DNA of 64,000 nt from Candidatus Melainabacteria bacterium (GTDB lineage: Bacteria > Cyanobacteriota > Vampirovibrionia > Vampirovibrionales > JAJTHC01). Position numbers and translations under genes: made by a program. Where the stretch lies: positions 9,046 through 73,045 of the forward strand of contig JANRKP010000007.1 in the NCBI GenBank assembly GCA_033763415.1. Direction: 5' to 3'. Positions 4,064 through 42,774 of this stretch are shown here, one piece after another. The first letter of the stretch is position 1; each line of letters opens with the position of its first letter. Below the pieces are notes generated by a model. The model saw only the letters and a list, made by a program, of their open reading frames with translations, was not told the DNA's origin and did no database searches.

Positions 4064-6271
4064 ATGGCAAACCCCGAAAACCCCACCCGTGTGGAACACG
4101 CCTCCACGGAACACGCAGAAAACCGACTGGCTGTGGCAAGCAGCGCCTACTTGCGCAGCGCCGCCCATCAACCCATTGATTGGTACGAATTTGGCCCCGA
4201 AGCATTCGAGCGGGCCCGAACGCTAGACCGCCCTCTGTTATTGGATATTGGCGCCGTCTGGTGCCACTGGTGCCATGTGATTGACCGGGAATCCTACGAA
4301 GATCCCGATATTGCTCAGATCATCAATCAGCACTACGTGGCGGTTAAGGTGGACCGGGATCAACGCCCGGATGTGGATAGCCGCTACCAGCAGGTCGTCA
4401 TGTCCATGACGGGCCAGGGGGGCTGGCCACTGACTGCTTTTTTAACCCACGACGGGCGCGTTATTTATGGCGGCACTTACTTTCCGCCCCAAACCATGAA
4501 ATCTCTGCTGAATCAGATTCATCAGGTCTATCAGCAGGAAAAAGCCAACATTTTTGCCAGCAACGCCGAGCAGGCCCAGGGCGAACCAGCAGACAACAAG
4601 ACGGATAGCGCCATTGCATCCACCATTCTGGCGCTTTCCACCCTGGCGGAAGCGGACGCGCACGCCCAACTGAAAACCGCCACCGATACCATGCTGGAAC
4701 ATATTCTTAGCCGCTACGACGGTATTTATGGCGGATTTGGCCAGCAGCCCAAGTTCCCGCACTTTAGCACCCTTCAGTGGCTCATTCAGCGCGTGCAGCA
4801 ACACGAGCTGGAGGGAAAACCCAACGCCCCCCTAAAAAGCCTGGTTCTCAACACGCTGGAAGAAATGGCCCGAGGCGGCATTTACGATCAGCTGGCCGGG
4901 GGCTTTCATCGCTATTCCGTGGATCGGGTTTGGCACGTGCCGCATTTTGAAAAAATGGCCTACGACAACGCAGAGGCACTGACCGTCTACAGCCAGGCAG
5001 CCCGGCTGTTTAAGCACGCTTACTTTGAAGAAATTACCGATGGCATTCTGCGCTGGGTGACCGAGCATTTGTCAGACACGGAACAGGGCGGCTTTTACGC
5101 CTCGCAGGATGCAGACATTGACCTGCATGATGACGGCGATCACTTTACCTGGAGCAGGGATGAAATTCTCAGCGTCCTGAACGCCGAACAGGCCGAGCTG
5201 GCCATGGCCTACTACGATGTCAACGAAGCCGGAGATATGCACGATCGCCCCGGTAGAAACGTGCTTTGGGCCAAACAATCCCTGGAGGAGGTCGCCGTTC
5301 GCTTTCGGATGTCGCCCCACCAACTGGTAGGGGAGCTCGCCGATATTAAAAGCCGATTGTACCAGCATCGGTTGGCCCATCGGCCCGTGCCGTTTATTGA
5401 TACCACGCTGTACACCAACTGGAACGGTATGATGATTGTTGGCTTTCTGGAAGCGGCGGACTTACTCCAGCGGCCCGAGGCGCAAGCCCTGGCCCTACGC
5501 TCACTGGAGCGAATGCTCCACCTGTTTTACTTGCCGAATCAGCGGGTATTCCACACGGAAGGCATCCACGGCCTGCTGGAAGATTATGCCTGGCTGGGCC
5601 TGGCAGCCCTCCGCGCGCACGAATCCACCGGCAATGCCACCTACCTGGCCGCTGCCAACGACATTGCCGCACTGATGATTCAGCAATTTTCTCCCCAAAC
5701 ACAGGACTCCACCGATTTTCAGGAGTCCGTGCCCGCATTTGTGCAAGGCTTTTTCGATACAGCCACGGAAGAAACACCGATTGGCCTGCTCAAATACCGC
5801 CGTCGTCCCCTGGAAGACAGCCCGAGCAGCAGTGCCAATGCAACCGCGCTCCAGCTCCTTTACCGGCTCAGTGTACACCAGCCCAACAGTCGCTATGGAC
5901 AATGGGTTCAGGCAACGCTTTGCTACCTGCTGCGCACCGAGGGCGGATTGGCCCCCCTGGGCTTATTTGTAAGCGCACTGGGCATTTTGGCGGATTGGCA
6001 ACACGCCCCGCCGCTGAAAATAGAATTGGTGGGCAACGCACCGGAGGCGTGGCAACAGGCGGTGTGCTCCGTGTTTTTTCCTGGAAAAATGGTGGTACAC
6101 CCGCAGCCCAGCACCAGCCCGGATCAGCCGCATGAGGTTCGCCCCGGCCCCGAAATTCGTCTCTGCGTTGGGCGGCAGTGTTTAGCACCCATTACCACCA
6201 CAGAGGCATTGGAAGCAATCCTCCAGTCACCTAACAGGCACTTCTCGGCCGGGTTGGCGTCTCTGTTTTAG
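4064..6271 (+). CDS. Thioredoxin-domain protein of the DUF255/YyaL family: N-terminal thioredoxin-like fold plus an (alpha/alpha)6 six-hairpin domain.
   Basis: N-terminal LLLDIGAVWCHWCHVIDRESYEDPDIAQIINQHYVAVKVDRDQRPDVD is typical of DUF255. The ~735 aa length fits the family. ATG at 4064 confirmed in the sequence. Confidence 0.8.
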   Translation: MANPENPTRVEHASTEHAENRLAVASSAYLRSAAHQPIDWYEFGPEAFERARTLDRPLLLDIGAVWCHWCHVIDRESYEDPDIAQIINQHYVAVKVDRDQRPDVDSRYQQVVMSMTGQGGWPLTAFLTHDGRVIYGGTYFPPQTMKSLLNQIHQVYQQEKANIFASNAEQAQGEPADNKTDSAIASTILALSTLAEADAHAQLKTATDTMLEHILSRYDGIYGGFGQQPKFPHFSTLQWLIQRVQQHELEGKPNAPLKSLVLNTLEEMARGGIYDQLAGGFHRYSVDRVWHVPHFEKMAYDNAEALTVYSQAARLFKHAYFEEITDGILRWVTEHLSDTEQGGFYASQDADIDLHDDGDHFTWSRDEILSVLNAEQAELAMAYYDVNEAGDMHDRPGRNVLWAKQSLEEVAVRFRMSPHQLVGELADIKSRLYQHRLAHRPVPFIDTTLYTNWNGMMIVGFLEAADLLQRPEAQALALRSLERMLHLFYLPNQRVFHTEGIHGLLEDYAWLGLAALRAHESTGNATYLAAANDIAALMIQQFSPQTQDSTDFQESVPAFVQGFFDTATEETPIGLLKYRRRPLEDSPSSSANATALQLLYRLSVHQPNSRYGQWVQATLCYLLRTEGGLAPLGLFVSALGILADWQHAPPLKIELVGNAPEAWQQAVCSVFFPGKMVVHPQPSTSPDQPHEVRPGPEIRLCVGRQCLAPITTTEALEAILQSPNRHFSAGLASLF

Positions 6272-6377
6272 TAAGTGGCACTCCAGTGGACTTGTTTGGC
6301 CAAGGAACGGTCCAACACCCACCAGTTGCCGTTTTAATTGTTGTTATATTGTACGAGTGGGAGGGTACCAGCCGACT

Positions 6378-6614
6378 ATGGATGCCTACAATGTGATGCA
6401 AGACCATGAAGACCACCTGATGAGCCTGCCCAATGTGACGGGTGTTGGCATTGGAGAAGACGAAAAGGGCCAGGAAACCATCGTCATTTACCTGAGCCAA
6501 CTGCCGGAAGCACAAACGGAATGGCTCAACACCACCTACCCCAATTCGTTAAACGGTATACCGGTGGTACTCCAAGATGCAGGGGGCCATTTTTTAGCCC
6601 TGGCGGAACGATAA
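6378..6614 (+). CDS. Hypothetical small protein (78 aa).
   Basis: ORF with GGGAGGG about 8 nt upstream of ATG (MDAYNVMQDHEDHL...). No recognisable domain. Confidence 0.4.
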   Translation: MDAYNVMQDHEDHLMSLPNVTGVGIGEDEKGQETIVIYLSQLPEAQTEWLNTTYPNSLNGIPVVLQDAGGHFLALAER

Positions 6615-7244
6615 ACACCGCCATTGCCACCCGCTGGCCCCAGATGATTCCAATAGGAAAAAACAATCCACCCATGCGGCCCGCTTTGCCCTGGGTGGAT
6701 TGTTTCTGGGTAGACTGTTTATAGAATTCGGTTATAAATATTTTTTTTAAATAAAAACGAATATTTATTCAGCTCAATTGAACAACAATTGGGTATAACT
6801 AAAAGCAGAACCGAGCATCCATCTTTCTTTAGATGGGGCCAATTTTTGGTTGCGTGGGGTCGGGGTCATTGCTCCGCATAAAGCCAAGCACGCGCCACAT
6901 CTTTAAAAAAACCCGCAAGAGCCACCACCGTGAGACTGTAGAAAATCCGTTAATCGTTCGATATTGAATGTTATACGAGAGAACGCCACTGAAAAAATGG
7001 CCAGCCGCTGCGCAATACGGCTGTAGTTGGCACGCCCCGGCAAGCAGGCCGTCCGTGTTATACACGGGCGCGAAAAATCAGCCAATATTATCCAGCCCAA
7101 CGGCCAACAAGCCACCTTCCCCGAGGGAGAAAGCGCCACACACCTTGATTACACCCTTTTTTGATAGCACCCTTTATCGCGTTTTAGCTTAGCCGCATTT
7201 AGCGCCCATCGTAGGTCAGGAGTGACGCATGCAGTTAGAGCACT

Positions 7245-7667
7245 TTATGGACGAGTTGCTGTCACTAGTTCAAGAAGCGCATGTTTGGTATGAGCATGGG
7301 CAGGCGGAAAACCTCCCGCCTCCAATTCCCGCCGAAGTTGATCGAAAAAGTCCTCTGGTAGTTGGGCAATGGCTCCATGGCGGACCAGTTCCACCAAGGC
7401 CAAAATAAGCTGGGATAAACTGTACTCGTCGGCGGCTCGCAACGCCTTTAGTTTATCCAACGTAAAGCCCGCCCGAGAAAAGGACGGCGTGTTGGCCAAA
7501 CGCTCCAGCGTCTCGTCACGAAACCGTCTGCGCCCGTGCATCAGGTTTGACAACCCGTCGGCAGATATTCCCATTTCTCTGGCCAATCGCTCCACAGATA
7601 AACCCTGATGCAGCATCAGCGTTTGAATGGCCAACCCCAAACTGTTTTCGGAACGCTTCATGACCAA
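7245..7667 (-). CDS. XRE-family helix-turn-helix transcriptional regulator.
   Basis: HTH_XRE-like segment LSVERLAREMGISADGLSNLMHGRR near the N-terminus. 140 aa. Confidence 0.6.
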   Translation of the reverse strand: MVMKRSENSLGLAIQTLMLHQGLSVERLAREMGISADGLSNLMHGRRRFRDETLERLANTPSFSRAGFTLDKLKALRAADEYSLSQLILALVELVRHGAIAQLPEDFFDQLRRELEAGGFPPAHAHTKHALLELVTATRP

Positions 7668-8095
7668 TCTCTTTCAAAAACAAAACTTTCAAAAAAGAAA
7701 GTTTTACTAACAGCATTGACAGGTTTTTGGTCCGGCGTGCTATAATTCATTGCCAAAGACTTCGTACCTGAAGCGTTTAACGCAACGTACAAACAGACGC
7801 CAGGGTTCGTCGTTTACTGATGGTATTGTATTACAAATCTGGCAATTGTTCTGAACTTTTCATATTGGCTCGATTCTTTATTTCCGTTTTAGTCCGTATT
7901 CATCACGCTGTTGTAGGTTGAGGAAGAAATACACGCGCCACCACTCTGGTAGCGTAGCGCAACGCACATTCTGTAGGCTGCCATAGAAGTATGTATGGAT
8001 GGATAGCGCAAGATTTGCTCGATGTGCACTGTTAGCTCGTTCAGGCGGTAAGCGTTTGCGATTGTACGCCACCAAAAAACAGAAAGGAATCTCTG

Positions 8096-8299
8096 GTGCT
8101 ACCATTCCGACTTCGGATTCACGAACTGTTGCAGAAACAACGCAAGGGTTGGTCCATGAAAACGCTGGCTGAAAAACTGGACGTGGATCATCAAACCGTC
8201 CTGTACTGGAACCAAGGACGCACCTACCCCAGACTGCCCACCCTGGTACAACTGGCCCGGCTATTGGGCTGTCCTCTGCAAGATTTATTGGAAGAATAG
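8096..8299 (+). CDS. XRE/Cro-C1-type helix-turn-helix transcriptional regulator (67 aa).
   Basis: Canonical HTH_3 pattern: LRIHELLQKQRKGWSMKTLAEKLDVDHQTVLYWNQGRTYPRLPTLVQLARLLGCPLQDLL. Divergent from the regulator at 7245..7667. Confidence 0.65.
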   Translation: MLPFRLRIHELLQKQRKGWSMKTLAEKLDVDHQTVLYWNQGRTYPRLPTLVQLARLLGCPLQDLLEE

Positions 8300-8667
8300 G
8301 CTGAATGTGACCCTGGACAACAATTTGTAACAGAAACATTAAGACAGTCTTAAGATTTTAATAATTTCCTAAAACATTGTCTGGTATTGGATTTTAGGCA
8401 TTTCTTCATTCGAACTTCATTTTTTAATTTTTATCCCTATACAAACAAATTAAAATCAAATGGATCCATCCTGTTTTTATGCCTATGTAGGGAATCCTTA
8501 AGAAAACCTTAAGTAACCCCGCAGAGAGAGAAAGCGAGTAAGTGGAGTGAGTTTAATTCATCAGCACCCAATCGCAACCAGTGCAAAGGCTGCACAATAT
8601 ACAGCCCATTAGCGTTGGTAAAGCTTCTCACGCATTACACGGAGTAGAGAGCACGGAGAAGAGCACA

Positions 8668-8871
8668 ATGTCTGGCTTTAAAACCAACGCAAATGCTGCC
8701 TTTGCTGCACATGCTGCCGTGTTCTCGGTAGCACCCAACCTTAGGCCCGCAGGCAGTGCACCGCTGTTTAACAACCCGGTATTTGGCGCCCAAAGAAGCC
8801 ACTACGGGCAAATGGCCACCGGTATGATGGCCGATAACAGCAATGGCCTACAATTAAACCTCAAAGTATAA
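8668..8871 (+). CDS. Hypothetical small protein (67 aa).
   Basis: GGAGAAGAG RBS ~7 nt upstream of ATG (MSGFKTNANAAFAAHAAVF...). No recognisable domain. Lies in an otherwise low-coding region. Confidence 0.35.
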   Translation: MSGFKTNANAAFAAHAAVFSVAPNLRPAGSAPLFNNPVFGAQRSHYGQMATGMMADNSNGLQLNLKV

Positions 8872-10052
8872 GTTTTCCCCTCCTTAGTTTTATTCGTCCA
8901 TTCCTCAGTAAACCCTCCCCCCCTTAAAAAAAGCAGACGTAAAGCCCAAAAAAGAAGCAAGAAACATAAAAAACAAAAGCGTTAAACCAACGGTTATCGA
9001 GTCGTTTGGTTCCCATTAGAGTGTTCCATTGATTTATTGATTCCCCTTCAGTTATGTCCGTATCACCCCCTTACCCCCTAACCTGAAACAACTTTGCCAG
9101 GGTTGAGTAAGGCTGAGCCCGTTGTGTTGGAAAGCGAGAATCTTGCTCCATCTCAACGACAACCGCCCGCTGACTCAACCCCGTTTTAACAAACCGTTTA
9201 CACAAACTTCCCTTCCCTCCCCTGTCCCATCATCCTTTCCCCCTGTTGTCAGCGCCTCAGGCAATACTGATGTGCTGAAAACCATTTCCCCAACTGTCTG
9301 GCCAATGGCCAGATACCCCCCCTGCGTGTTGCCCGGTTTTAACGGACAAGCGCTTTTTCTTTTTTGGGGTTGTTTTTAGGCAATTTTTTTACTGGCGCCA
9401 GCCAGCAGACAACACTACCTCCACATAGCCCTGCCCTATATCCGCACGGAGAACATCCATACAAAAAAGCTGCCCACCCCCATTCAAGAGGAATGAACAG
9501 CTTTTTTACACGGCGCAAAAAATACCCGGCTTTTCATAAAGCAACATGGACAGTAGGGCCGTATTTTTTAATTTAAAAACAGGCTCGCCACGGTGCCCAC
9601 ACACAGTAGCGCCCCAATCAGCGCACCCGTTACAAACGCATTGGTATTATTGCCAAACAGCAACTTGGTCATACTGTTAAACACTCCCCTCTTTCGTCTG
9701 TTGTTTTGTTCTATTGATGATGCACAAGAAAACCCAAACAAACGGCCCGTTTAAAAAAACATGGCCGCACAACGCTTTATTATAGTGGGTTTTATCCTGC
9801 CCGAATATTCCCCCAAACGGGTGAACCACTACCCAGGAGAGCAGTAAAACCAACTGAGCCAGAATGGGGAAAGCGGCAACAGCAGCCCACCCCTTGGCTT
9901 AGGGACAACGTTTTTTTACACCCAGACGCGGCAAACTTCCTAAATTTTTGGCAACGGCTTTTTTGCACTGGCGACAAAACCGTACGGGTTTCTGCCTGAT
10001 GAATTGGAGCCCTCTGGGTTAGAGCCTCTGGATAGAGCCGGGGGGTCGTTGG

Positions 10053-24920: not shown

Positions 24921-26603
24921 TTACACAGCCCAGCGGGCCAATAGGCGGCCCACCAGCTCGCGCAGTTCCGAGGGAAGATTCAGTTGCTCTTTGACCCGCA
25001 GCAACTCCTCTTCCACACAACGGCGCCCATACTGCTGCAAAAAGCCGGGCGTTTCCACCAGTTTCTGGTTGTCCACCTCCTGACGCAACTGCACGGCCGC
25101 CGAAGCGGCTAGCTGGCTGAAACTGTGAATTTCCTGACAGTGCAGCAAATAGGCGGCTTCCGTCAAACGAGGAATCAGCAAGGCCTTCCATCCACTATTT
25201 ACCAAAGCCCGGGTTACCTGATGGGACAATGTGTCCAACAGGTCAAAAAATACCGCGTCGGATTCCGGCGGATGCGCCACGGCAGCCTCTAGCATAGCGC
25301 TTACCTGGCCCAGCAGTTCCGTCACTTCCGGGTGATCGCCGGGCTCTAAAAACCAGGTTTCAAAATCGGGGTGCTGGTATAAATTGGCGCCCAACACCAT
25401 ACCCGCCTCGGTGGCCCACGGCTGCACGGTTTCCATTAAATCCATCGGTTCTAGCGAAACATCTTCCAGCAAGACCTTCCAACAGCTATATTCATACGGA
25501 ATGCGGCTGCCGTTGTTGCGACTCATTTTTTCAGCCCACTGAATTTTGTTACGGCAATAGCTGACCGGCACCCGAATTTTCGTGTTGCCCTCGTGGAACT
25601 TCTGCAAAATGCGCTCAAAGTCTTCCTGGGCCAACTGATAAAAACCAAAGCAGTCAATAATGCCGTGCAGGTCGTTTAGCGCCAGGCTCATCATCGTAAT
25701 GTCGCCATTACTCCACTGACGACTGACCACCATGCCCTGGTTTCCCACCCCATCGGGAAGCGTGGCATAACAGTCAAACAAAACCGTTTGCTGCACCAGT
25801 GGGTGGCGAACACTCTGCTCCTGGAACGCCTCCACGGCTTCTTCCCTTAAGGCGCCAGACAGGCGAATTTCACTCAGGGCCCGTTGAATGGCACGGATCA
25901 AATCCGGAGAGGCGGCCACGTAACTGCCCTGCAAAGCCGCCAACCAGTCCGCCAAAAACATACCGGCCGGGGTCAGGCCACTTTTGCCCAAACTGCGTAT
26001 CAAGCGCTGTCGCACCTCGGTTGGAGGCTCCGCCTGAATGAGCGGAATGTAGATATTCATCAGGTAATCGGGCCGGTAATCGTTCTGCAAGGACTCGATG
26101 AGATGAATTTGCTCTGGTTCGGGCAAGGAGCAAATAAAGTCGATAAAATCAATCAGCGCTTCCGGGTTTTGCGAAGACACCTCCAACATGCGTTCGGTTT
26201 CGCGGTTAATCAGCCCCAAGGGATCGTCGAGATACTCCAGGTACAGATCCGGGTCGGTTTCATCGCCCAAGTGGCGCAAAATCAGGTTGGCCGCATCCTT
26301 TACCTCATCGGTGGTGTTGGGGTTGCGGATCAGTTCCCAAAGCGGGGTTTGAAGATGCGCAATGGTGCCCAGTTCCATTAAAATTTCGGCCACGGCCTGA
26401 ATATCCGACGGTTTTTTAGCGCGCTGGAGTTCTTTAACTAAAATGAGCAGCACGGCTTCCCGATCGGCGATTTCTCGCAAACGACGAAACTGTTTGGCCC
26501 GGTCGTGACGAGACGGTGTTTCCACCGAAGTCAGCACGCCCATCACTGCGAGCACTTCGCTACGAATATAAAGTTTGGAAGAAATCTGTGGAACGTCTGT
26601 CAT
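24921..26603 (-). CDS. Conserved-looking hypothetical protein of unknown function (560 aa, soluble, predominantly alpha-helical composition).
   Basis: Long uninterrupted ORF co-directional with the graspetide precursor upstream and ruvX downstream. No motif I can assign. Confidence 0.7.
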   Translation of the reverse strand: MTDVPQISSKLYIRSEVLAVMGVLTSVETPSRHDRAKQFRRLREIADREAVLLILVKELQRAKKPSDIQAVAEILMELGTIAHLQTPLWELIRNPNTTDEVKDAANLILRHLGDETDPDLYLEYLDDPLGLINRETERMLEVSSQNPEALIDFIDFICSLPEPEQIHLIESLQNDYRPDYLMNIYIPLIQAEPPTEVRQRLIRSLGKSGLTPAGMFLADWLAALQGSYVAASPDLIRAIQRALSEIRLSGALREEAVEAFQEQSVRHPLVQQTVLFDCYATLPDGVGNQGMVVSRQWSNGDITMMSLALNDLHGIIDCFGFYQLAQEDFERILQKFHEGNTKIRVPVSYCRNKIQWAEKMSRNNGSRIPYEYSCWKVLLEDVSLEPMDLMETVQPWATEAGMVLGANLYQHPDFETWFLEPGDHPEVTELLGQVSAMLEAAVAHPPESDAVFFDLLDTLSHQVTRALVNSGWKALLIPRLTEAAYLLHCQEIHSFSQLAASAAVQLRQEVDNQKLVETPGFLQQYGRRCVEEELLRVKEQLNLPSELRELVGRLLARWAV

Positions 26604-26937: not shown

Positions 26938-28059
26938 TTACTGAATATCGCGGTTCAGCCTAGGACGTTGCCAAGCCTGAAGCGAGCTGCCTTCGGGTGG
27001 AACATCCATCAGAATAGCGGGCGGTTGCGCGTCTTCTTCCAACGCTTCTACCGGCAGCCACTCTTGGGAAGAACCGGGCTGAATGCTATGGCCAAAGTCC
27101 TCTTCCATTAACTCAGGGCCCCATTCCTGCACATCGGCAGGCGGCATATGGGGTGCGTCCTCTTCTATCAGGCCCGGAAAACAGTCAATAAAGTCCTGGC
27201 GGCCCATCGGAATCAGGGTTTCGTCTACCTCTAAACCGGGTGGAATATAGCCAGGGGAAGGCTCGGGTTCGATCGGCAGTTCCTCCATCCAGCGACCGTT
27301 GCCGGGCACGATAATGATGTCATCGCCAGGCGCTTCGCCCACACCCCCGGTTTCAGCATCGGATGGGAATGCCAACGTTTGTTCCACAATACTGGGGTTT
27401 GACGGCTCCCACGGCATCGGCCCTTCAATTCCACCAGGCTCCATAGAGCCCCCATCTTCGCTGTCAGATGGGTACTTCATCGTTTCTATGCCACTGTCGG
27501 GCAAGGGAAAAATACCACCATCGCCAGGCGCTTCACTTGCGCCCCCATCTTCACTATCGGACGGATACTTCAGGGTTTCTATGCCACTGTCGGGCAAGGG
27601 AAAAATACCGCCATCGCCAGGCAGCTCACCCACACCACCCTCTTCGCTGTCAGATGGGTACTTCATCGTTTCTACGCCACTGTCGGGCAAGGGAAAAATA
27701 CCGCCATCGCCAGGCAGCTCGCCCACACCACCCTCTTCGCTATCCGAAGGTGCCTTCATAGTTTGGTAGCCACCGCCCAAATCGCCGGGTTGGGTAGCCC
27801 AGGGCGCTTCGCTAGAACCACCCTCTTCACTGTCAGAGGGGTATTTCATCGTCTGAATCACCGTATCTGGAGATAAGGGCGAATCCCAGGACGTGCCACC
27901 CACGCCACCTTCTTCACTATCCGATGGCGCTTTTTCGGTCTCACCACGAATGCCATCCATCCATTGACGCCCCTCTGGGTTGGCTTGGGCCAAGCGCGGC
28001 AACGGTTGCGGGGGGGTTTGGCCGCTAGTCGCAAAATTGAGGAAATAACGATCTGTCAT
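26938..28059 (-). CDS. Multi-core graspetide (microviridin-like) precursor peptide: leader, 7 tandem core-like units, and an acidic C-terminal tail.
   Basis: The translation contains TEKAPSDSEEGG, TMKYPSDSEEGG, TMKAPSDSEEGG, TMKYPSDSEEGG, TLKYPSDSEDGG, TMKYPSDSEDGG and TLAFPSDAETGG, spaced ~31 aa apart. T-x-K-Y-P-S-D-x-E-E is the microviridin core signature. The N-terminal DRYFLNF resembles the PFFARFL leader motif. Adjacent to three ATP-grasp genes. Confidence 0.75.
   Translation of the reverse strand: MTDRYFLNFATSGQTPPQPLPRLAQANPEGRQWMDGIRGETEKAPSDSEEGGVGGTSWDSPLSPDTVIQTMKYPSDSEEGGSSEAPWATQPGDLGGGYQTMKAPSDSEEGGVGELPGDGGIFPLPDSGVETMKYPSDSEEGGVGELPGDGGIFPLPDSGIETLKYPSDSEDGGASEAPGDGGIFPLPDSGIETMKYPSDSEDGGSMEPGGIEGPMPWEPSNPSIVEQTLAFPSDAETGGVGEAPGDDIIIVPGNGRWMEELPIEPEPSPGYIPPGLEVDETLIPMGRQDFIDCFPGLIEEDAPHMPPADVQEWGPELMEEDFGHSIQPGSSQEWLPVEALEEDAQPPAILMDVPPEGSSLQAWQRPRLNRDIQ
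27448..27726. repeat. Three near-identical tandem ~93-bp coding repeats inside the precursor gene (the core plus linker units).
   Basis: Protein units VGELPGDGGIFPLPDSG(V/I)ET(M/L)KYPSDSE(E/D)GG repeat three times. The DNA is near-identical. The plus-strand shadow ORFs also show the repeats (PLSGKGKIPPSPG...). Confidence 0.8.
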
Positions 28060-28320
28060 AGGAAAAACGAAACCTCTCTGCTCTCTAATCTTTTATGTTG
28101 GCTTGGCAAAAAACCGAACACATCGACGTTTCAGTCTGTCACCCAAGCAACGGGGTAACATCTGTTACTGAAAACTGCTTCATGCACGCCAGCACAGCTC
28201 TTTAACTCTCTATTTACAGGTTTTAGTTCTCTCTCTCTTGATAACCCTTGGATGCAGCCCGAAGAGATGCAACCCAAAGCATATTTGACACCTGACGGGG
28301 ATTTTTTTAAGCGGAAACGA

Positions 28321-28340
28321 AACCTGCAACAATGCAGGTT
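28321..28340. promoter_or_regulatory. Perfect 8-bp inverted repeat (AACCTGCA-ACAA-TGCAGGTT) in the divergent intergenic region between the graspetide precursor and the ATP-grasp operon.
   Basis: Read directly. Flanked by GAAACGAAAC-type direct repeats at ~28067, ~28315 and ~28352. Confidence 0.3.
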
Positions 28341-28702
28341 GAATGCATAAAGTAGAAACGAACCGCTTTTGTGCTAGACACACCCACCTTTAGCGCTTGG
28401 GCAAAGTATTTAGCCTTGTGGAGCGGCGCGCTCAGTGGTTGCATTCTGCCCTACATCGTTGCATGGTGCTTAGGGCCTGTCGCTGGGCTTGCTGACAGCT
28501 TGCCCTACCCCCCCGATAAAGGACACCACTTTCATTTTGGTAGAGGGTTTGTCTTGCAGAAATTTTTTGGAAAGATGGCCTCGTTTCCGCTGGACAGGGG
28601 AACCCAAACACCCGAGCGCCTGTTAAAATCGAGCCAATGTAGGCACTGTACCTGCGGTATCCTACTCCGCCGGTATTACAAACGGGTTTTACAATAGCCA
28701 CT

Positions 28703-29650
28703 ATGTTTTTAATCATTGGCGGCAGCAACAGCCTAACCAACCGACTCTACGCCAAGCTGCGCGCACGCGGGCACCGAAGCTGCTTTTGGCCCTCGGACAG
28801 TTTTCCCCTGGAATCCTGGGTCGCGCTGGAAACCGGCCCCCCCCCCAAAGGACGGTTCTGGCTACCTGGTATTGGGCAACAAAGCCTCTCTCTGCAAGAA
28901 ATTGAGGGTGTTTATTGGTGGTTTTATGAAGGTCCGGCATTACTGAAAGCCCCACCTGTCGAAGGAGAAACCCCGGAGCAGGCCGCTCGACGCCAGCGCC
29001 AGGAGTTGGATGCCTGCCTGCTGACAGCCTATCACTTGATGGATTGCCCCTGGATTAACCCGCCAGGCAGCGTCCTAAACCACCGTTACAAGGTAGAGCA
29101 GCTCACCGAGGCGACCGCGTTGGGGTTCACCATTCCAGATAGCCTGATGAGCAACGATCCTCAAGCAATTGCAGCCTTTTACCAGGATTGCCAGGGCGAA
29201 GTGGTTGTAAAAAGTGTGGCCACCACTGGGGTGCCCAGCCGGTTAACCCAAGCACAACTAAGCCAATGGCAGAAAAATGGCGAAAGTAAGCCTGCCACCC
29301 GGCTGTTTCAGCGGTTTATACCCGGCACCGATGTGCGGGTACACGTGGTGGGCCAGCGCCTGTTTGCGTCTGAGGTATTAAGCGATCATTGGGTGTCCAA
29401 GGTCGATCTCAAAGATCCGCAACCTGTTTCCATTCCCGATGCGCTGGCGCAGCAATGCCTTACATTGTGCGAAAAACTCAATCTGGTACTGGCCGGGATT
29501 GACTTTAGGAAAACATCGGACGGGGAATACGTTTTTTTGGAAGCCAACCCCAGCCCACAGTACCCCGCCTACGAAGACCGAAACCACTACCCGATTAGTG
29601 ACGCCATTGTAGAGGCCTTGATCCGTGGCGTGGGGGCAAAACACCGATGA
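28703..29650 (+). CDS. ATP-grasp ligase, RiPP-modifying (MdnB/MdnC-like graspetide maturase), paralog 1.
   Basis: Pre-ATP-grasp N-terminus MFLIIGGSN... ATP-grasp motifs: VVKSVATTG (Lys), IDFRKTSDGEYVFLEANPSPQY (E-x-N Mg site). ~315 aa. Stop overlaps the next start (ATGA). Confidence 0.85.
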   Translation: MFLIIGGSNSLTNRLYAKLRARGHRSCFWPSDSFPLESWVALETGPPPKGRFWLPGIGQQSLSLQEIEGVYWWFYEGPALLKAPPVEGETPEQAARRQRQELDACLLTAYHLMDCPWINPPGSVLNHRYKVEQLTEATALGFTIPDSLMSNDPQAIAAFYQDCQGEVVVKSVATTGVPSRLTQAQLSQWQKNGESKPATRLFQRFIPGTDVRVHVVGQRLFASEVLSDHWVSKVDLKDPQPVSIPDALAQQCLTLCEKLNLVLAGIDFRKTSDGEYVFLEANPSPQYPAYEDRNHYPISDAIVEALIRGVGAKHR

Positions 29651-30591
29651 TTTTGATTATAGGCCACCGAGACGAACACACCCAGCGCGTGGAAGCCCAC
29701 CTGGAAACCCTGGGCCAGCGCGTCATCTACTGGAACACACAAAGTTTTCCGGCGGAAGCCAGCCTTAGCCTGCACCTGGGAGATTTTTCCCAATCCTGTT
29801 TGGAACTGCACCAGGAGCGGTTGTTTCTTTCAGATATTGAGGGCGTTTACTGGTACCACTACCACGGCGTGCGCCCAGGCAGCCGAACAACAGACCCGGA
29901 GGCAGACGTTTCTCTGCTCAATCTGTTTCGCAGTTGGCAAACAAACTGGGTCAACCCGCCCGCATCCGTTATGCGCCACAGACTGAAAATCTATCAGCTA
30001 CAACAGGTCGCACAGCTTGGTATTCGGACTCCACACACGCTGGTGAGTAACGATATTGGCAGCCTGCAATCCTTTTGCGAACAAATGGGCGGCACCATTA
30101 TTTCTAAAAACTACACGGGCATTGGCATTCCGCAAAAACTGACCAGCGCCTCACTGGCCAGTAACCTTCAGGCCGATTCATCTCAGCGCAGCATGATGCC
30201 TGCCATTTTTCAGGAATACATCCAAGGGCTGGATATCCGCATCCACGCGATAGGAGACGCCCTGTTCGCCACGGAACTGCACACGCAGGACTGGACGTTT
30301 GTGCTGGATCGCCAGGTGGAACTGCGCGCCACCAGCGTGCCAGACGATTTGGCCGAACAGTGCCAGCGGATTATACAACGGTTGGGACTGGTTTTTTCCG
30401 GGTTAGATTTTAGACGAACCCAAACAGGAGAGTACGTTTTTATTGAAGCCAACCCCAGCCCGCAATTTGGCGCCTACGAAGCGGCCTGCCACTACCCCAT
30501 TAGCGAACACGTGGCCAAACGGCTCTGTGGCAAGCACCCCAACTACCCAACCGGCCCATCCCGGCCCGGAACGGAGGGACACACGGCATGA
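29647..30591 (+). CDS. ATP-grasp ligase, RiPP-modifying (MdnB/MdnC-like), paralog 2.
   Basis: Paralogous to 28703..29650 (WVNPPASVMRHRLKIYQL vs WINPPGSVLNHRYKVEQL; LDFRRTQTGEYVFIEANPSPQF). ATGA-type overlap with both neighbours. Confidence 0.85.
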   Translation: MILIIGHRDEHTQRVEAHLETLGQRVIYWNTQSFPAEASLSLHLGDFSQSCLELHQERLFLSDIEGVYWYHYHGVRPGSRTTDPEADVSLLNLFRSWQTNWVNPPASVMRHRLKIYQLQQVAQLGIRTPHTLVSNDIGSLQSFCEQMGGTIISKNYTGIGIPQKLTSASLASNLQADSSQRSMMPAIFQEYIQGLDIRIHAIGDALFATELHTQDWTFVLDRQVELRATSVPDDLAEQCQRIIQRLGLVFSGLDFRRTQTGEYVFIEANPSPQFGAYEAACHYPISEHVAKRLCGKHPNYPTGPSRPGTEGHTA

Positions 30592-31511
30592 CCATTCTCA
30601 TTGTGGGCAAAGAAGAAGATCTCACCTCCATTGTGATCAAGGAAAAAGTCGCCTATCGCGGCATTCCCGCCTATTACCTGGATACCCGGCAGTTTCCGTA
30701 CAAAACCCGACTGAGCTTCAACATCGAATCGCCCACGGAAGGCGTTTTTCAGGAGGCGCCCCATCAGCCCGTGGTTCCTCTGGGCGACATTCGCGGCGTG
30801 TTTCGTCGCTGGTCCGACGGCGTGGTGGTTCCAGCAGACGAGACCGACCCCTTGCGGCGACGCCTGGTGCAACGAAACCTGGAATCGGCCATCAACACGT
30901 TTTTCAACCTGCTGGATTGCCAATGGGTCAATACCGCCGAGGCCACGGACCGACACCGGCAAAAAGGCGTGCTGCTGAAAGAACTGAAACAGGCTGGCAT
31001 CCGTGTTCCAGAAACCCTGATTTCCAACCACCCTGAGGAGGTCAAAGCGTTTTACGAACAACTCAACGGCCAGGCCATTTTCAAACCCGTATTCAGTTGG
31101 GCCAGCACCGAGGCGCTGATGCCTGAACACCTGACAGACGAATCCCTGGCGCGGCTGAGCAATATGCCCATTACCGTTCAGGAGCTGATTAACGGAACAG
31201 ACTTACGCATTTACGTGGTGGGCCAAGAGGTGTTCGCCATGGAAATTCGCAGCGAAACGCTGGATTTTAGAGACGATCCGGGCGCCACGCGAGTTGCAAT
31301 AAAGCTTCCAATGGATATTGAAGCCCGCTGCATCGAGATTACCCGTCGGCTGGGCCTGGTGTTTTGCGGTATCGATATGCGCAGAACACCAGACGGCGAG
31401 TACGTGTTTTTCGAAGGCAATCCCACACCCGTTTTTCTGATGGATGAAGACATGACCGGCTACCCCATCGGGGATCGCATCGTGGATTTGCTCACCCAAG
31501 GCGAGCGTTAA
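30588..31511 (+). CDS. ATP-grasp ligase, RiPP-modifying, paralog 3 (more divergent).
   Basis: Same architecture (MTILIVGKEED... IFKPVFSWAST ... IDMRRTPDGEYVFFEGNPTPVF) but lower similarity to paralogs 1 and 2. Confidence 0.85.
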   Translation: MTILIVGKEEDLTSIVIKEKVAYRGIPAYYLDTRQFPYKTRLSFNIESPTEGVFQEAPHQPVVPLGDIRGVFRRWSDGVVVPADETDPLRRRLVQRNLESAINTFFNLLDCQWVNTAEATDRHRQKGVLLKELKQAGIRVPETLISNHPEEVKAFYEQLNGQAIFKPVFSWASTEALMPEHLTDESLARLSNMPITVQELINGTDLRIYVVGQEVFAMEIRSETLDFRDDPGATRVAIKLPMDIEARCIEITRRLGLVFCGIDMRRTPDGEYVFFEGNPTPVFLMDEDMTGYPIGDRIVDLLTQGER

Positions 31512-31592: not shown

Positions 31593-32588
31593 TTACACCA
31601 CAAACGAGGCCAGGGCAGAGGTTAAGTCTGTCGTGGGTTTCATTTGATCGTCGTGGTATGGAATTTCTACCGGTGAGTGCTCCCGCAACGGGGGCAGGTT
31701 TTGCTTCAGCAACTCATCGTACGTTGGCAAGCCCACCTGGAAGTAGACGCCCAAGGGCACCCGCTCTTCCACTTCGTAGGCTTTTTGCAACGCCTGCTGA
31801 CGTTTCTGGCTGACTTCCGCCGGGTCGGTGGGGTTTTCCACCACGCCGTTATAGCCGGTGTCTTCCAGGTAGTAGGTTCTTGGGTATTCCACGCCTTCAA
31901 AGGAAACCACACCGGAATAGTAGTCCTTGGTATGGAGGTCGTTATAGGTGGGGCAAGGCTGGAACACATCCACAAGCGCCATACCGCGGTGCTCGATGGC
32001 TTTCATCAGGGTTTCTTTCAGATGTTTGCCATCAAACGCGTAGCTACGGGCAATAAACGTGTAACCACAGGATACCGCAACGGCCAACGGGTTGATTGCC
32101 TGGCTAATGTTAGGCAGCGGCAGCGATTTTGGCTGAGCCCCCAGCGCCAACGTCGGGGCAGCCTGCCCCTTGGTTAGGCCGTACACCTCATTGTTGAACA
32201 CAATGTAGGTCATATCCACGTTGCGGCGGCCCGCATGCAGAAAGTGACCCGCACCGATGCCGTAACCATCACCATCGCCACCGGCGGCAACCACCACCAG
32301 GTTTGGGTTGGTTAGTTTGGCACCCAACGCGTAGGGCAGCACACGGCCATGGAGCGTATGAATGCCATACGTGTTCACCGCTTGCGACGCCTTACCCGAG
32401 CAACCGACCCCGGTGAAAAAGGCCACTTCCCAGGGAGGCAAACCCAATTCGGCAATGGCTTGCTGAAGGGCGCCATTGATACCAAAGTCGCCGCAACCAG
32501 GACACCATTCCGGGCTGTAGTCGCCCTTTAACTGAGAAAACTTGTAGCTGCCCTTGTACCGGGCTTTCTCTTGCAGATTAGTGACCAC
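31593..32588 (-). CDS. korB: 2-oxoacid:ferredoxin oxidoreductase beta subunit (TPP-binding; KorB/OorB-like).
   Basis: N-terminal ...YSPEWCPGCGDFGI... and the TPP-binding GDGDG motif (VVVAAGGDGDGYGIGAGH). Overlaps the upstream alpha-subunit gene by 11 nt. Confidence 0.85.
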   Translation of the reverse strand: MVTNLQEKARYKGSYKFSQLKGDYSPEWCPGCGDFGINGALQQAIAELGLPPWEVAFFTGVGCSGKASQAVNTYGIHTLHGRVLPYALGAKLTNPNLVVVAAGGDGDGYGIGAGHFLHAGRRNVDMTYIVFNNEVYGLTKGQAAPTLALGAQPKSLPLPNISQAINPLAVAVSCGYTFIARSYAFDGKHLKETLMKAIEHRGMALVDVFQPCPTYNDLHTKDYYSGVVSFEGVEYPRTYYLEDTGYNGVVENPTDPAEVSQKRQQALQKAYEVEERVPLGVYFQVGLPTYDELLKQNLPPLREHSPVEIPYHDDQMKPTTDLTSALASFVV

Positions 32589-34422
32589 AGGTCAGCACCA
32601 CCTTTCTGGACGCTTTTTCAGCAACTTCTTTCACTGCGGCTACCACTTCGGTCTCAGAAATGGGACGACCCGTCCACTTGAGCACCTGGTGTTGGATATC
32701 AAAGCCGGTGCGCAGGCGAATGAGCTGTGCCAACTGACCGCTGTAGTTGGATTCAATGGACAGAACCGTCTTGGCCTGACGCAAGATATCCAGTACGGCC
32801 TCAGAAGGGAATGGACTCATCATGCGAATTTGCAGGAAGTTCACCTTCATGCCGTGCTCTTTCTCAAGCACTTTCAGCGCATCGATCACAGCGCCCTTGG
32901 TGGAGCCCCAGGCCACAATCGTGACATCGGCCTGGCTGGGACCATAGAAGTTGTACTGGCGATCCACCGGAATTTCCTGGGAGGCCAAATCCAGCTTCTT
33001 CATCCGCTTTTCCATCATCTGGAGACGGATTTCAGGCTTTTCGGTAATGTGACCCAGCGGATCGTGCTCATCACCCGTCAGCCAGTGTACCCGGCCCGGC
33101 TCTCCCAGCAAGGGGCGCGGAGAAATACCGGATTCCGTGATTTTAAACCGCTCGTATAGCTGCATGCCCGTCTTCACATCATCTGGATTGAAGTCGGGAG
33201 AAGGACCACACAGCTCGCCGCGATCCACCCGCAGGCTGGCCTCATCAAACTGCGCAATCGATTGGGTGGAGTTGGCCAAGGCTTTATCCACCAGCACAAT
33301 TACCGGCGTTTGGTAGCGCTCCGCGTAGTTAAAGCTGTAGAACGCGTCCTCAAAACACTCGTGCATATCGCCAGGGGCAATCACAATTTTCGGAAAGTCC
33401 CCGTGGCCCGTGTGCAGCGCAAACAACAAGTCACCCTGTTCGTTGCGGGTGGGCAAGCCCGTAGAAGGACCGCCGCGTTGGTAATTGAAGACCACGGTTG
33501 GCACTTCGTTAATGCCTGCCCAGCCAATGCCTTCTGCCATTAAGGAGAAACCAGGCCCAGAGGTTGCGGTTGAGGAGCGGGCTCCGGTCAGCACGGCGCC
33601 ATTGGTCATGTTAATGGCAGCCAGTTCATCTTCTGCCTGATACACAACAATGCCGTACTCCGGGTGCTCTTCCAGGTAGATGCATTCATCCACGGCTGGG
33701 GTAATGGAGTAATAGGTTTGAAAACGGCAACCCGCTTTCAGTTTACCCACCCCGCAGGCCGCCGCGCCATTCATGAGCAAACGCGAGCCTTTTTCAGGCT
33801 TGTTAGAAACTTCCACCAGCTTGAAGCCGTAGTCCTCAAAGCCATCGAGGCGAGAAACGCACTCGTAGGCCTGACGGGCAGCCAATACGTTGATTGGAAT
33901 GGCCTTGGCCCGACGACCACTAAACAGCTCCAATATGGCGGTTTCCACCGCTTCAAACGGAACACCCTGAAGTGCCGCCGCCGCCACCGAAATGGTGTTT
34001 TTGGTAATGGCCAGCTTGACCATATTTTGGCCGGTTTGATCCGCCATGTTTTTGATCAAATCGTCGTAGGGAATGGGAAAACGCTTGACCGACGATTCCA
34101 TTTCCAACGCATCGGGATCTACCGTGTTGGGGTCGTACAGCAAAGCGCCGCCAGGCACCAACTCGTGGGCATGAATTTGCGCCGTGGTTTTTTCAAACGT
34201 GGCCAGCAGATGAATGGGATCGATAAACGAATGGACCGGCTCGGTATTGACCCGAATTTGAAAGTAGCTGTGCTTGCCCTTGATGTTGGAATGGTATTCC
34301 CGTTTTCCATACACCCAGTAGCCTGCAACCGCCATTGTACGAGCATAGAGGGTTGCGGAAGAATCCACCCCACTGCCCTGTGGCCCGCCAATCATCCAGC
34401 AGACATCGGTTTTTCTACTCAT
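32578..34422 (-). CDS. korA: 2-oxoacid:ferredoxin oxidoreductase alpha subunit (fused gamma-alpha; KorA/OorA-like).
   Basis: N-terminal gamma-like domain (MIGGPQGSGVDSSATLYARTMA) followed by the alpha catalytic domain. 614 aa. Confidence 0.85.
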   Translation of the reverse strand: MSRKTDVCWMIGGPQGSGVDSSATLYARTMAVAGYWVYGKREYHSNIKGKHSYFQIRVNTEPVHSFIDPIHLLATFEKTTAQIHAHELVPGGALLYDPNTVDPDALEMESSVKRFPIPYDDLIKNMADQTGQNMVKLAITKNTISVAAAALQGVPFEAVETAILELFSGRRAKAIPINVLAARQAYECVSRLDGFEDYGFKLVEVSNKPEKGSRLLMNGAAACGVGKLKAGCRFQTYYSITPAVDECIYLEEHPEYGIVVYQAEDELAAINMTNGAVLTGARSSTATSGPGFSLMAEGIGWAGINEVPTVVFNYQRGGPSTGLPTRNEQGDLLFALHTGHGDFPKIVIAPGDMHECFEDAFYSFNYAERYQTPVIVLVDKALANSTQSIAQFDEASLRVDRGELCGPSPDFNPDDVKTGMQLYERFKITESGISPRPLLGEPGRVHWLTGDEHDPLGHITEKPEIRLQMMEKRMKKLDLASQEIPVDRQYNFYGPSQADVTIVAWGSTKGAVIDALKVLEKEHGMKVNFLQIRMMSPFPSEAVLDILRQAKTVLSIESNYSGQLAQLIRLRTGFDIQHQVLKWTGRPISETEVVAAVKEVAEKASRKVVLTCGH

Positions 34423-41856: not shown

Positions 41857-42774
41857 ATGCGTTTATCAAACAACCCGCTGGGCGTATTTGCGCGACATTC
41901 GCACCCGTTTTTTGTAAAGACAGAGCAGGTACCTCAACCTCAACAGCAGCCCTTTTCCCCGGGTGGCGCACTCCAGCAAGGCCCGTTCTATAGTCGCCTT
42001 GGGCAAGATGTGTTTAGCCCGGCCACACACCCCTCGGAAGGGCCCCGGCTAGCAAGCCCGTTGGCACAAAAATTTGGGCAGACCGAACCGGCAGCACCCG
42101 CAGGCAGCCCCGATGATTTTCAGTGGCTCCAGGCGCTGAACCAAAACGCCGACAAAGCCAACCCCAACGCCCCCGTGGCCATACCCGCCGGAAGCAACCT
42201 AAACAACCGGCAGTTGCAGGGTTCAAACCTTCACCGTGCCCAGCTCAACCAGGTGCGTCTGCAATCGGCCTGTTTGGCCCACAGCAATTTAAGCCAAGCC
42301 CAGTTGCAGCAGGCCCAGTTGCAATATGCAAACCTGCAAGGAGTCGATCTTCGGGAAGCCAATCTTCGCCAAGCCAATCTTCAAGGGGCAAACCTTCACC
42401 AAGCCAACCTTGCCAAGGCAAACCTAAGCGGCGCCAACTTGCAAAATGCCGACCTCAGCGGTGCGGATTTGACCCATGCCCAACTCAACGGCGCCAACCT
42501 CAGCCATACCCGCTGGAACAGCGCCATACTCGACGGCACCCAGCTGTCCGGAGCCAAGCTCAACGGCGCAGATTTTAAATCCGTGGCTGTTCTTCAGGAT
42601 GTGCAGGTGTACAACTACGGCCAGCAGAGCCACTACCAAACCAGTCAATTTCCGCCAGGCACCCGACACTGGTTTTTTAAGGCCAACCCCAACCACCCGG
42701 AAACTCGGGTAATAGAAGCCTGGCTCAACCCCAGCTTTCCCACCCACGGCAAGGTAACCTCGCCAACAACCTAA
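41857..42774 (+). CDS. Pentapeptide-repeat protein.
   Basis: Tandem A(N/D)LxxA(N/Q)L pentapeptides (ANLRQANLQGANLHQANLAKANLSGANLQNADLSGADLTHAQLNGANL). The N-terminal ~110 aa is Pro/Gln-rich. Confidence 0.85.
   Translation: MRLSNNPLGVFARHSHPFFVKTEQVPQPQQQPFSPGGALQQGPFYSRLGQDVFSPATHPSEGPRLASPLAQKFGQTEPAAPAGSPDDFQWLQALNQNADKANPNAPVAIPAGSNLNNRQLQGSNLHRAQLNQVRLQSACLAHSNLSQAQLQQAQLQYANLQGVDLREANLRQANLQGANLHQANLAKANLSGANLQNADLSGADLTHAQLNGANLSHTRWNSAILDGTQLSGAKLNGADFKSVAVLQDVQVYNYGQQSHYQTSQFPPGTRHWFFKANPNHPETRVIEAWLNPSFPTHGKVTSPTT

Follow-up and report, generated by a model that had tools for sequence, protein, structure and literature searches.

The 64,000-nucleotide stretch analysed here in full (the window) is part of a contig from a metagenome-assembled genome (MAG) of 'Candidatus Melainabacteria bacterium', an uncultured, non-photosynthetic, Vampirovibrionia-type relative of the cyanobacteria. 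At positions 26938–31511 it holds a minus-strand precursor open reading frame (ORF) followed by three plus-strand genes for ATP-grasp ligases, here called G1, G2 and G3. We consider this locus likely to be a gene cluster for graspetides, that is, for omega-ester/omega-amide peptides that are made on the ribosome and modified after translation (RiPPs), with a precursor of the microviridin/marinostatin family; as predicted from the genes, its product is very probably a set of cage-shaped, microviridin-type protease-inhibitor peptides. The ORF map gives the following layout:

26938–28059, minus strand: precursor gene, 373 amino acids (MDX2084281.1)
28060–28702, no strand: divergent intergenic (promoter) region, 643 bp between precursor and G1
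28703–29650, plus strand: G1 ATP-grasp ligase gene, 315 amino acids (MDX2084282.1)
29647–30591, plus strand: G2 ATP-grasp ligase gene, 314 amino acids (MDX2084283.1)
30588–31511, plus strand: G3 ATP-grasp ligase gene, 307 amino acids (MDX2084284.1)

The G1/G2 and G2/G3 junctions are 4-bp ATGA overlaps, joining the three ligase genes in what appears to be one translationally coupled operon. All four products carry the NCBI annotation 'hypothetical protein' (locus tags SFZ03_02705 to 02720).

A regular-expression scan with the core pattern T-x-[KA]-[YAF]-P-S-D-[SA]-E-[EDT]-G-G finds seven cores in the precursor, at residues 41, 70, 100, 131, 162, 193 and 228, so that the protein divides into a leader (residues 1–40), a stretch of cores and linkers (residues 41–239) and a C-terminal tail:

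28030–28047, minus strand: leader motif Y5-F-L-N-F-A10 (YFLNFA, 'type B'), at the extreme N-terminus
27448–27939, minus strand: cores 1–6, TxK[YA]PSDSE[ED]GG, with T1, K3, S6, D7, E9 and E/D10 in each
27904–27939, minus strand: core 1
27817–27852, minus strand: core 2
27727–27762, minus strand: core 3
27634–27669, minus strand: core 4
27541–27576, minus strand: core 5
27448–27483, minus strand: core 6
27343–27378, minus strand: core 7, TLAFPSDAETGG, degenerate, without Lys3 and without the position-10 acid
27448–27741, no strand: 93-bp DNA tandem repeat, 3.2 copies, 87% identity
26938–27342, minus strand: C-terminal tail and stop codon, residues 240–373 (134 amino acids, isoelectric point ~4)

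Six of the seven cores contain the full set of T1, K3, S6, D7, E9 and E/D10 and match the TxKxPSDx(D/E)(D/E) core criterion; core 7, lacking Lys3 and the position-10 acid, could form two esters at most. The first-pass annotation, made from the letters of the window alone, had described seven TxKYPSDSEEGG repeats with every ring-forming residue in all of them. The count of seven stands, but the literal form occurs only in cores 2 and 4 (position 4 is Ala in cores 1 and 3, position 10 is Asp in cores 5 and 6), and the residue set is complete in cores 1–6 but not in core 7. Each of the precursor's six lysines sits at core position 3, and Gly-Gly follows directly after every core. The 93-bp repeat consists of the recently duplicated linker-plus-core units of cores 4–6.

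The precursor clears two curated thresholds, well beyond what chance would give: that of Pfam PF12559 (Inhibitor_I10), with 62.5 bits (cut-off 21), and that of the 'microviridin/marinostatin family tricyclic proteinase inhibitor' model, NCBIfam NF033738, with 86.1 bits (cut-off 26). Aligning its N-terminal motif with that of homologous proteins supports the assigned start codon. Pairwise comparison of cores 1–6 gives 84 synonymous versus 25 non-synonymous codon differences, the latter confined to positions 2, 4 and 10; T1, P5, S6, D7 and E9 are invariant despite many synonymous changes (Pro5 uses all four codons, Thr1 and Ser6 three each). This synonymous excess shows translation in this frame, with purifying selection acting on the residues that form the rings. 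Both the family match and the codon-level selection argue against an explanation that we hold to be highly improbable, namely that housekeeping ligases of RimK/GshB type happen to stand beside an unrelated or unexpressed low-complexity repeat ORF.

The ligases bear on the same explanation. G1, G2 and G3 share 32–37% identity with one another and carry both ATP-binding lysines and the E-x-N-P motif (as 'LEANPSP', 'IEANPSP' and 'FEGNPTP'), as expected of the paralogous ATP-grasp enzymes that had been proposed here. Pfam alone labels them mainly 'RimK-like ATP-grasp', with G1 below the gathering score, which would suit a housekeeping role; yet RimK is outscored throughout by RiPP-maturase models and structures. 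NCBIfam TIGR04187, at 117–142 bits, is among the best family matches of all three, against 49–73 bits for the RimK family and ~16–20 bits for GshB and cyanophycin synthetase, and PF21068 is matched by G2 (29.9 bits, cut-off 27), narrowly missed by G3 (25.5) and not matched by G1. Among sequences of solved structures in the PDB, the graspetide enzymes PsnB, MdnC, MdnB, AMdnB, PruB and CdnC match at E-values of 1e-10 to 4e-27, RimK at only 1e-4 to 1e-8, and the closest solved sequence relative of G3 is PsnB (E = 3.8e-27). Structures were compared for G1 alone, the most divergent ligase: its AlphaFold2 model (predicted local distance difference test, pLDDT, 92.6; predicted template-modelling score, pTM, 0.90) returned graspetide macrocyclases for each of the first 32 Foldseek matches in the PDB (MdnC, AMdnB, CdnC, PruB, MdnB and PsnB), with E = 1e-25 and a template-modelling (TM) score of ~0.8 to MdnC, followed by RimK and LysX at ~3e-15. 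Both ATP-binding lysines, the Mg-binding Asp, the Glu-x-Asn and the equivalent of PsnB Arg213, the acid-recognising arginine, are kept in G1–G3 and their orthologs. The profile search suggested by the first-pass annotation thus places the ligases, with their ATP-grasp fold and pre-ATP-grasp domain, nearer to RiPP maturases than to RimK, and the clustering with RimK-, GshB- or cyanophycin-type enzymes that it had named as the outcome that would count against it is seen neither by sequence nor, for G1, by structure; with the precursor above its cut-offs, the annotation's picture of a microviridin-like graspetide locus, in which three ATP-grasp maturases go with a precursor of several cores, holds. 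Precursor and ligase genes also adjoin one another in three independent loci—the window and the loci L004 and L006 described below—which likewise speaks against a housekeeping role.

Kinship with graspetide macrocyclases does not extend to the two enzymes of the microviridin pathway. On the NCBIfam equivalog models, G1, G2 and G3 score 88.5, 114 and 124.5 bits for MvdC/MdnB (TIGR04185, cut-off 425) and 76, 94 and 112 bits for MvdD/MdnC (TIGR04184, cut-off 475), about a quarter of the cut-offs, against 365 and 416 bits on the MvdC/MvdD models for the ligases of a PFFARFL-type multi-core locus (L002), which match MdnB at 3e-88. A neighbour-joining (NJ) tree of 76 sequences with 100 bootstraps unites MdnB, AMdnB, L002-MvdC, MdnC, L002-MvdD and CdnC in one clade (bootstrap 100; MdnC/MvdD/CdnC 93, MdnB/MvdC 96) and leaves G1–G3 outside it, with G1 and G2 in one rare superclade and G3 in another, broader one. 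An insertion of ~11 residues after the second ATP-binding lysine is common to the MdnB/MdnC/CdnC clade; PsnB and G1–G3 are without it. On these sequence comparisons, G1, G2 and G3 are not orthologs of MdnB or MdnC. In microviridins MdnC installs the two lactones and MdnB the lactam (PMC5934393, PMC12848669), a division of labour that had been carried over to this locus; well established as it is for microviridins, it cannot be assigned by homology to ligases that score 76–125 bits on the equivalog models and fall outside the clade.

The ligases also differ among themselves at two positions of known importance. Two features, the D(F/W)R loop and the position of Arg72 in PsnB, are reported to be highly conserved across 12 graspetide groups and are needed for PsnB activity; the DFR loop of PsnB touches the nucleotide of the neighbouring dimer and is essential (bioRxiv 10.1101/2021.03.09.434688). 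G3 keeps every hallmark: VFRRW with Arg72 and its RR motif, Arg213, and the DFR loop. In a MAFFT alignment, the Arg72 position is taken by YWWFY in G1 and by YWYHY in G2, and the loop by VSK and TFV, respectively; the whole G1/G2 superclade shows YW[WY]x at Arg72, with a loop of VSK (G1), TFV (G2) or x[YF]K (deeper members). Relatives of G1 are few: 1.84 billion representatives yield no more than 26 clusters with E ≤ 1e-30, and the GTDB species representatives include a single full-length ortholog, in Vampirovibrionales Bin_14 (50% identity); another MAG, HKST-UBA04, has G1-like fragments at contig ends (64% over 71 residues). A scan of JGI metagenomes for G1 orthologs gave none above 34% identity and no further multi-ligase loci. 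By sequence, then, G1 and G2 form a rare, divergent subfamily, and G3 is a canonical-looking graspetide ligase.

The main rival to the scheme set out below is a cooperative hetero-complex in which only G3, or G3 with one partner, is autonomous and G1, G2 or both need G3 physically, G3 perhaps lending in trans the D(F/W)R loop or contact with the leader, in the manner of MyxD2. The replaced Arg72 equivalent and loop of G1 and G2 would fit this, as would the reach of the PsnB loop into the neighbouring dimer's nucleotide and the 4-bp overlaps, which suggest coupled, stoichiometric expression of G1–G3; myxomiditide biosynthesis, in which MyxD2 is inactive without MyxD1 and MyxF, provides a precedent (PMC12848669). 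Against it, the ATP- and Mg-binding residues and Arg213 are all intact in G1 and G2, and G1 has a lysine where the loop arginine would be. We rate this cooperative arrangement as a possibility to be entertained rather than expected; it is compatible with one bond per ligase.

The set of three ligases is not peculiar to the window. Vampirovibrionales Bin_14 (L004/L010) encodes one-to-one orthologs of G1 (50% identity), G2 (48%) and G3 (68%) with a 201-residue precursor of five T[LQ]K[AF]PSDAEDGG cores, G1 and then G2 being read in one direction and, divergently, the precursor and then G3 in the other. A Logan contig (L171) repeats this order (G1 47%, G2 39%, G3 59%), with no adjacent precursor, and fragments from MAG HKST-UBA04 (L012, L014) and from a short contig (L009) fit the same layout and are consistent with a further trio. 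The trio is therefore conserved in at least two other Melainabacteria/Vampirovibrionales assemblies, and its recurrence with one-to-one orthologs means that no chance duplication accounts for the third ligase. Wherever the context is long enough for a judgement, ligases of G1/G2 type lie beside one of G3 type, an association that would also fit the cooperative complex, while G3-type ligases occur alone, with unrelated candidate precursors, in four loci (L007, L011, L170 and L172).

A further locus, L006, has only two ligases (6973–7923, minus strand, and 8001–8918, plus strand), one G1/G2-like and one G3-like, and its 342-residue precursor (5731–6759, minus strand) has 14 cores alternating between TxK[FY]PSDNESG and TxA[YF]PSDSEGG, none of which (0 of 14) has an acid at position 10. 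Its sequence suggests a relative of the window system that would make bicyclic products with esters only. These loci also weigh on a third account, in which one ligase makes both esters and one the lactam, and the third is redundant or an isozyme for a subset of cores—Tyr4 versus Ala4, or proximal versus distal. MdnC and AMdnC each install both lactones (PMC5934393), MyxD1 and MyxF behave as isozymes (PMC12848669), and the window cores do split into K-Y and K-A types. Yet orthologs of G1, G2 and G3 are each kept at 39–68% identity in at least two other lineages, the trio is retained in L004 despite its nearly uniform cores, and the two-ligase L006 has cores capable of only two bonds, and we judge a spare ligase unlikely.

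Linkage between precursor and ligases varies across the lineage. They adjoin in the window, L004 and L006; they do not in L171 or in L001 (MAG HKST-UBA06), where a type-B multi-core precursor, P0007 (2092–2718), has no ATP-grasp gene within 8 kb downstream. A precursor without ligases in the one and a trio without a precursor in the other indicate that the two can be unlinked. As an observation apart, a lone G3-like ligase (L007:8001–8951, plus strand; 47% identical) adjoins a Ser/Lys-rich 209-residue protein (L007:7214–7843, plus strand) that has LDEEGG and LGEEGG motifs and no PSD cores and may be the precursor of another graspetide type.

Using the precursor, and an alignment of seven members, as queries gave 64 relatives. 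Arrays of 8–15 cores occur among them (15 in P0002 and P0232), so seven cores are not exceptional. They show at least three leader types: PFFxRF, often preceded by a long N-terminal domain; 'RLMSPxxAF'; and the rare type B. The one PFFxRF-type locus for which context was fetched, L002, has canonical MvdC/MvdD-type ligases, and the precursors that adjoin G1/G2/G3-type ligases (window, L004 and L006) are those of type B. The window precursor has no PFFxRF, the mark of the PFFARFL leader helix, and carries YFLNFA at residues 5–10 instead; the type B pattern, Y[FLM][LN]x[FY][AP] at residues 5–14, recurs in the L004 and L006 precursors and in P0004, P0006, P0007 and P0009, and the leader of P0268 is similar to it. 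P0009 and the G3-like P0019 probably lie on one 1,924-bp contig, to judge by the matching lengths of their contigs. By analogy with PFFARFL (PMC8939145), YFLNFA is likely to be the element on which the ligases dock.

The same relatives speak to ring topology. Across their 326 cores, Lys3 and the position-10 acid are both present in 302 and both absent in 10, with Lys3 alone in 6 and the acid alone in 8; that the two are lost together (Fisher p = 9e-11, the cores of one protein not being independent) supports a Lys3-to-position-10-acid link, as in microviridins. The acidic, Pro-rich tail of the window precursor (21 Pro, 18 Glu, 11 Asp; three '[LM]xEED[AF]' and two 'QEW[GL]P' motifs) is absent from every other family member examined, type-B precursors included. 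We considered it as a substrate for the third ligase and rejected the idea: the L004 precursor is tail-less and yet its trio is retained. P0009 has an acidic/aromatic stretch of similar composition between its leader and first core.

Other features of these precursors deserve record. Most type-B precursors—the window precursor is an exception—contain an amphipathic segment rich in Gln, Leu and Ile, such as 'YLQQLLRILIQQLQGV' or 'IIQLMTQFLQIIMQLLQT', which is C-terminal in those of L004 (7297–7902) and L006 (5731–6759) and lies between cores 1 and 2 in P0004, P0006 and P0007; a similar segment, 'MIVQVLGMVIQQLLARG', is found in a 255-residue AGN/AGT-repeat protein (L170:3420–4187, minus strand) beside a lone G3-like ligase. 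Such segments may serve as a second element for recognition by the ligases. A conserved domain of ~80 residues, '...ALIPVGALTPTAP..DPN..F.V.RTGG.AG.T...', without a Pfam match, is fused to the C-terminus of the multi-core proteins P0003, P0010 and P0012 and to the N-terminus of P0011; many such domain-fused proteins begin with an 'RLMSPxxAF' region in place of PFFARFL. On L003, a contig with a domain-fused precursor, there is no ATP-grasp gene within ~8 kb downstream, the upstream sequence being only ~0.8 kb.

Taken as a class-II-like multi-core precursor, the window protein would dock to the ligases through its N-terminal YFLNFA, and the ligases would phosphorylate, at the expense of ATP, the side-chain carboxylate of D7, E9 or E/D10, the acyl phosphate then being attacked by the T1 hydroxyl, the S6 hydroxyl or the K3 amine. 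Cores 1–6 would each become a tricyclic cage with a T1–D7 ester, an S6–E9 ester and a K3–E/D10 lactam, and core 7 would be bicyclic at most, giving a maximum of 20 dehydrations per precursor (−360.3 Da from an average mass of 39,473.6 Da). Tentatively, G3 may act first, closing the large T1–D7 lactone, with G2 and G1 adding the remaining ester and the lactam, one each. Three observations favour this order: G3 is canonical and its relatives are found alone; G1/G2-type ligases occur only with a G3-type ligase; and the two-ligase L006 has cores with two bonds at most where three-ligase loci have three acceptor acids. If each ligase makes one bond, the third, Lys–acid bond would be tied to the G1/G2 duplication. 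An extra ring motif as the task of the third ligase was also considered and rejected: the window precursor has neither KxxE (the class 3 motif, of myxomiditide) nor TxxxxD (the class 2 motif), and no lysine outside its cores.

The surroundings bear on the fate of the modified precursor. Pfam scans of ORFs of at least 180 residues throughout the 64-kb window show no GNAT, C39 peptidase or ABC exporter, which extends to the entire window an absence that had been reported for the neighbourhood of the locus, and a dedicated protease or exporter is likewise missing around the L004 and L171 trios. This favours a reading in which the modified 39-kDa protein is itself the end product, an uncleaved multi-headed protease inhibitor and not a source of 12–30-residue peptides; so do the long non-core tail, the relatives P0003 and P0011 that fuse core arrays to folded-looking domains, and precursors unlinked from their ligases (L001). 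Conversely, the Gly-Gly after each core is a common RiPP cleavage signal (PMC8939145), microviridin release by housekeeping proteases is possible (PMC7823629), and with no evident signal peptide in the precursor, export of the whole protein is unexplained. We regard an uncleaved product as rather doubtful. In the scheme proposed above, Gly-Gly would be a possible cleavage signal, release or export would proceed through genes elsewhere in the genome or the modified protein would act uncleaved, and the products, from established knowledge of the family, would inhibit serine proteases. In line with microviridin–protease complexes, core position 2, here Met, Leu or Glu, would be expected to fill the S1 pocket of the protease.

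The divergent intergenic region and the wider window offer few further clues. Four motifs of GGAAACGA type (GGAAACGA(A/C)C) lie in the 643 bp, and they are listed here with other features of the window:

28064–28073, 28314–28323 and 28355–28364, plus strand: GGAAACGA-type motif, direct
28581–28591: GGAAACGA-type motif, inverted
31593–34422, minus strand: 2-oxoacid:ferredoxin oxidoreductase, beta and alpha subunits, directly downstream of G3 and convergent with it
41857–42774, plus strand: pentapeptide-repeat protein
54205–62023, minus strand: two large genes, a UvrD helicase with PD-(D/E)XK nuclease and a PD-(D/E)XK nuclease

The motif copies may be operator sites for a regulator; RAAACGAAMC has no match elsewhere in the 64 kb, with 0.9 expected per window and the pattern defined after the sites had been seen. 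Rfam finds no match in the intergenic region, promoter and terminator scans give no more than chance there, and no additional small precursor gene is present, either in these 643 bp or in the rest of the window. The window's gene content is housekeeping and regulatory and its base composition unremarkable, the nearest neighbours being RuvX, guanylate kinase, histidine kinases, response regulators and a SpoIIE-type phosphatase. Nothing ties the oxidoreductase, pentapeptide-repeat or nuclease genes to the cluster, and a downstream 560-residue gene (24921–26603) was dropped as a candidate member, having a sub-threshold HEAT match only and no homolog in the related loci.

At well under even odds, Vampirovibrionia/Melainabacteria may have an independently evolved three-enzyme cage system with one bond per ligase, in which G1 and G2 act only on or with G3 and its product. 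Several points weigh against our reading of the locus as a graspetide cluster. All three ligases score far below the curated NCBIfam cut-offs; NJ support within the G1/G2/G3 region is weak (bootstraps 17–64); and the loss of Arg72 and of the D(F/W)R loop may leave G1 and G2 unable to act on their own. The precursor leader differs from PFFARFL, and ligase binding of YFLNFA is only predicted. The link between ligase number and bond number comes from very few loci, and the L006 genome may hold a third ligase elsewhere. No peptidase, exporter or acetyltransferase gene is found among the window ORFs of at least 180 residues, the sequence is a MAG contig (though an independent assembly has this gene set too), and all that we say of the products is inferred from the genes alone.

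Class II microviridins (AMdnA/AMdnB/AMdnC of Anabaena sp. PCC 7120; Microcystis MdnA/B/C) are the obvious comparison. The window system shares with them the TxKxPSDx(D/E)(D/E) core, ring-forming residues included, one leader ahead of tandem cores (here seven), the ATP-grasp macrocyclase fold and, by analogy, an expected tricyclic cage and serine-protease inhibition (PMC5934393, PMC7823629). The class II scheme of Ahmed et al. (2017), as outlined in PMC7823629, couples one leader and tandem cores with a C39 peptidase/ABC transporter and often a GNAT. Unlike it, the window has three ligases rather than two, none an ortholog of MdnB or MdnC; an N-terminal YFLNFA in place of an internal PFFARFL; seven cores where the 2017 classification has 'up to five'; no C39 peptidase/ABC transporter or GNAT; a 134-residue acidic tail; and a host from a non-photosynthetic Melainabacteria lineage.

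Other systems share parts of this architecture. The year 2026 saw publication of a microviridin pathway with four cooperating ligases: the myxomiditide system (myx; MyxF, MyxD1, MyxD2 and MyxC) likewise joins a microviridin-type core to more than two ATP-grasp ligases, and its MyxD2, partner-dependent and without canonical recognition residues, may parallel G1 and G2; its ligases, unlike those of the window, fall in or beside the MvdC/MvdD clades, the additional ligase is devoted to an additional (KxxE)n motif, and its precursors are single-core with a PFFxRFx leader (PMC12848669). The plesiocin synthetase PsnB (group 2; PDB 7DRM) resembles G3 in its DFR loop, in Arg213 and in the shortness of the stretch that follows the second ATP-binding lysine, and like the window system it handles repeated cores in a single precursor; PsnB is nevertheless a single ligase that makes only esters on TTxxxxEE cores, with unrelated leader and core motifs. 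Marinostatin and chryseoviridin (CdnA/CdnB/CdnC) belong to the same precursor family and come from outside the photosynthetic cyanobacteria; CdnC, unlike G1–G3, groups with MdnC in the NJ tree. Marinostatin is bicyclic and ester-only, a topology that core 7 and the L006 cores could resemble. Chryseoviridin is a multicore product according to the title of the CdnC paper, which PMC11626197 cites.

Much here is thus already known: the product class, the reaction and the fold, precursors with several cores (PMC5934393, PMC7823629), and microviridin pathways that employ more than two ligases (PMC12848669). The features that the first-pass annotation had called unusual are less so than it held: precursors of 8–15 cores exist, and a four-ligase pathway is published (PMC12848669). 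Its view that the products are uncharacterised agrees with four 'hypothetical protein' annotations and with a searchable literature in which we found neither microviridin clusters with three ligases nor graspetides from Vampirovibrio. What appears undescribed in that literature is the combination of a microviridin-type core, an N-terminal YxLNFA leader, a conserved trio of ligases that are neither MdnB nor MdnC, with among them what appears to be a subfamily without two 'universal' graspetide-ligase features, and a Melainabacteria/Vampirovibrionales host.

Microviridins are potent, engineerable serine-protease inhibitors and a model of RiPP macrocyclisation in which one leader and two ligases give ordered rings. 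If the three-enzyme scheme is true, lactam-forming activity and the pairing of a microviridin core with its ligases would have arisen at least twice, the second time with an N-terminal YxLNFA leader code; G3 would be a PsnB-lineage ligase, and G1 and G2 an undescribed ATP-grasp subfamily whose Arg72 and D(F/W)R hallmarks have been replaced, which would test the universality of those features in graspetide ligases. With their specificities separated, and possibly limited to one bond each, the enzymes would be useful tools for multi-core display and for preparing defined intermediates with one, two or three rings. Microviridin-type chemistry would, moreover, extend to the non-photosynthetic sister group of the cyanobacteria; some members of that group are predatory, and protease inhibitors could therefore matter in their ecology.

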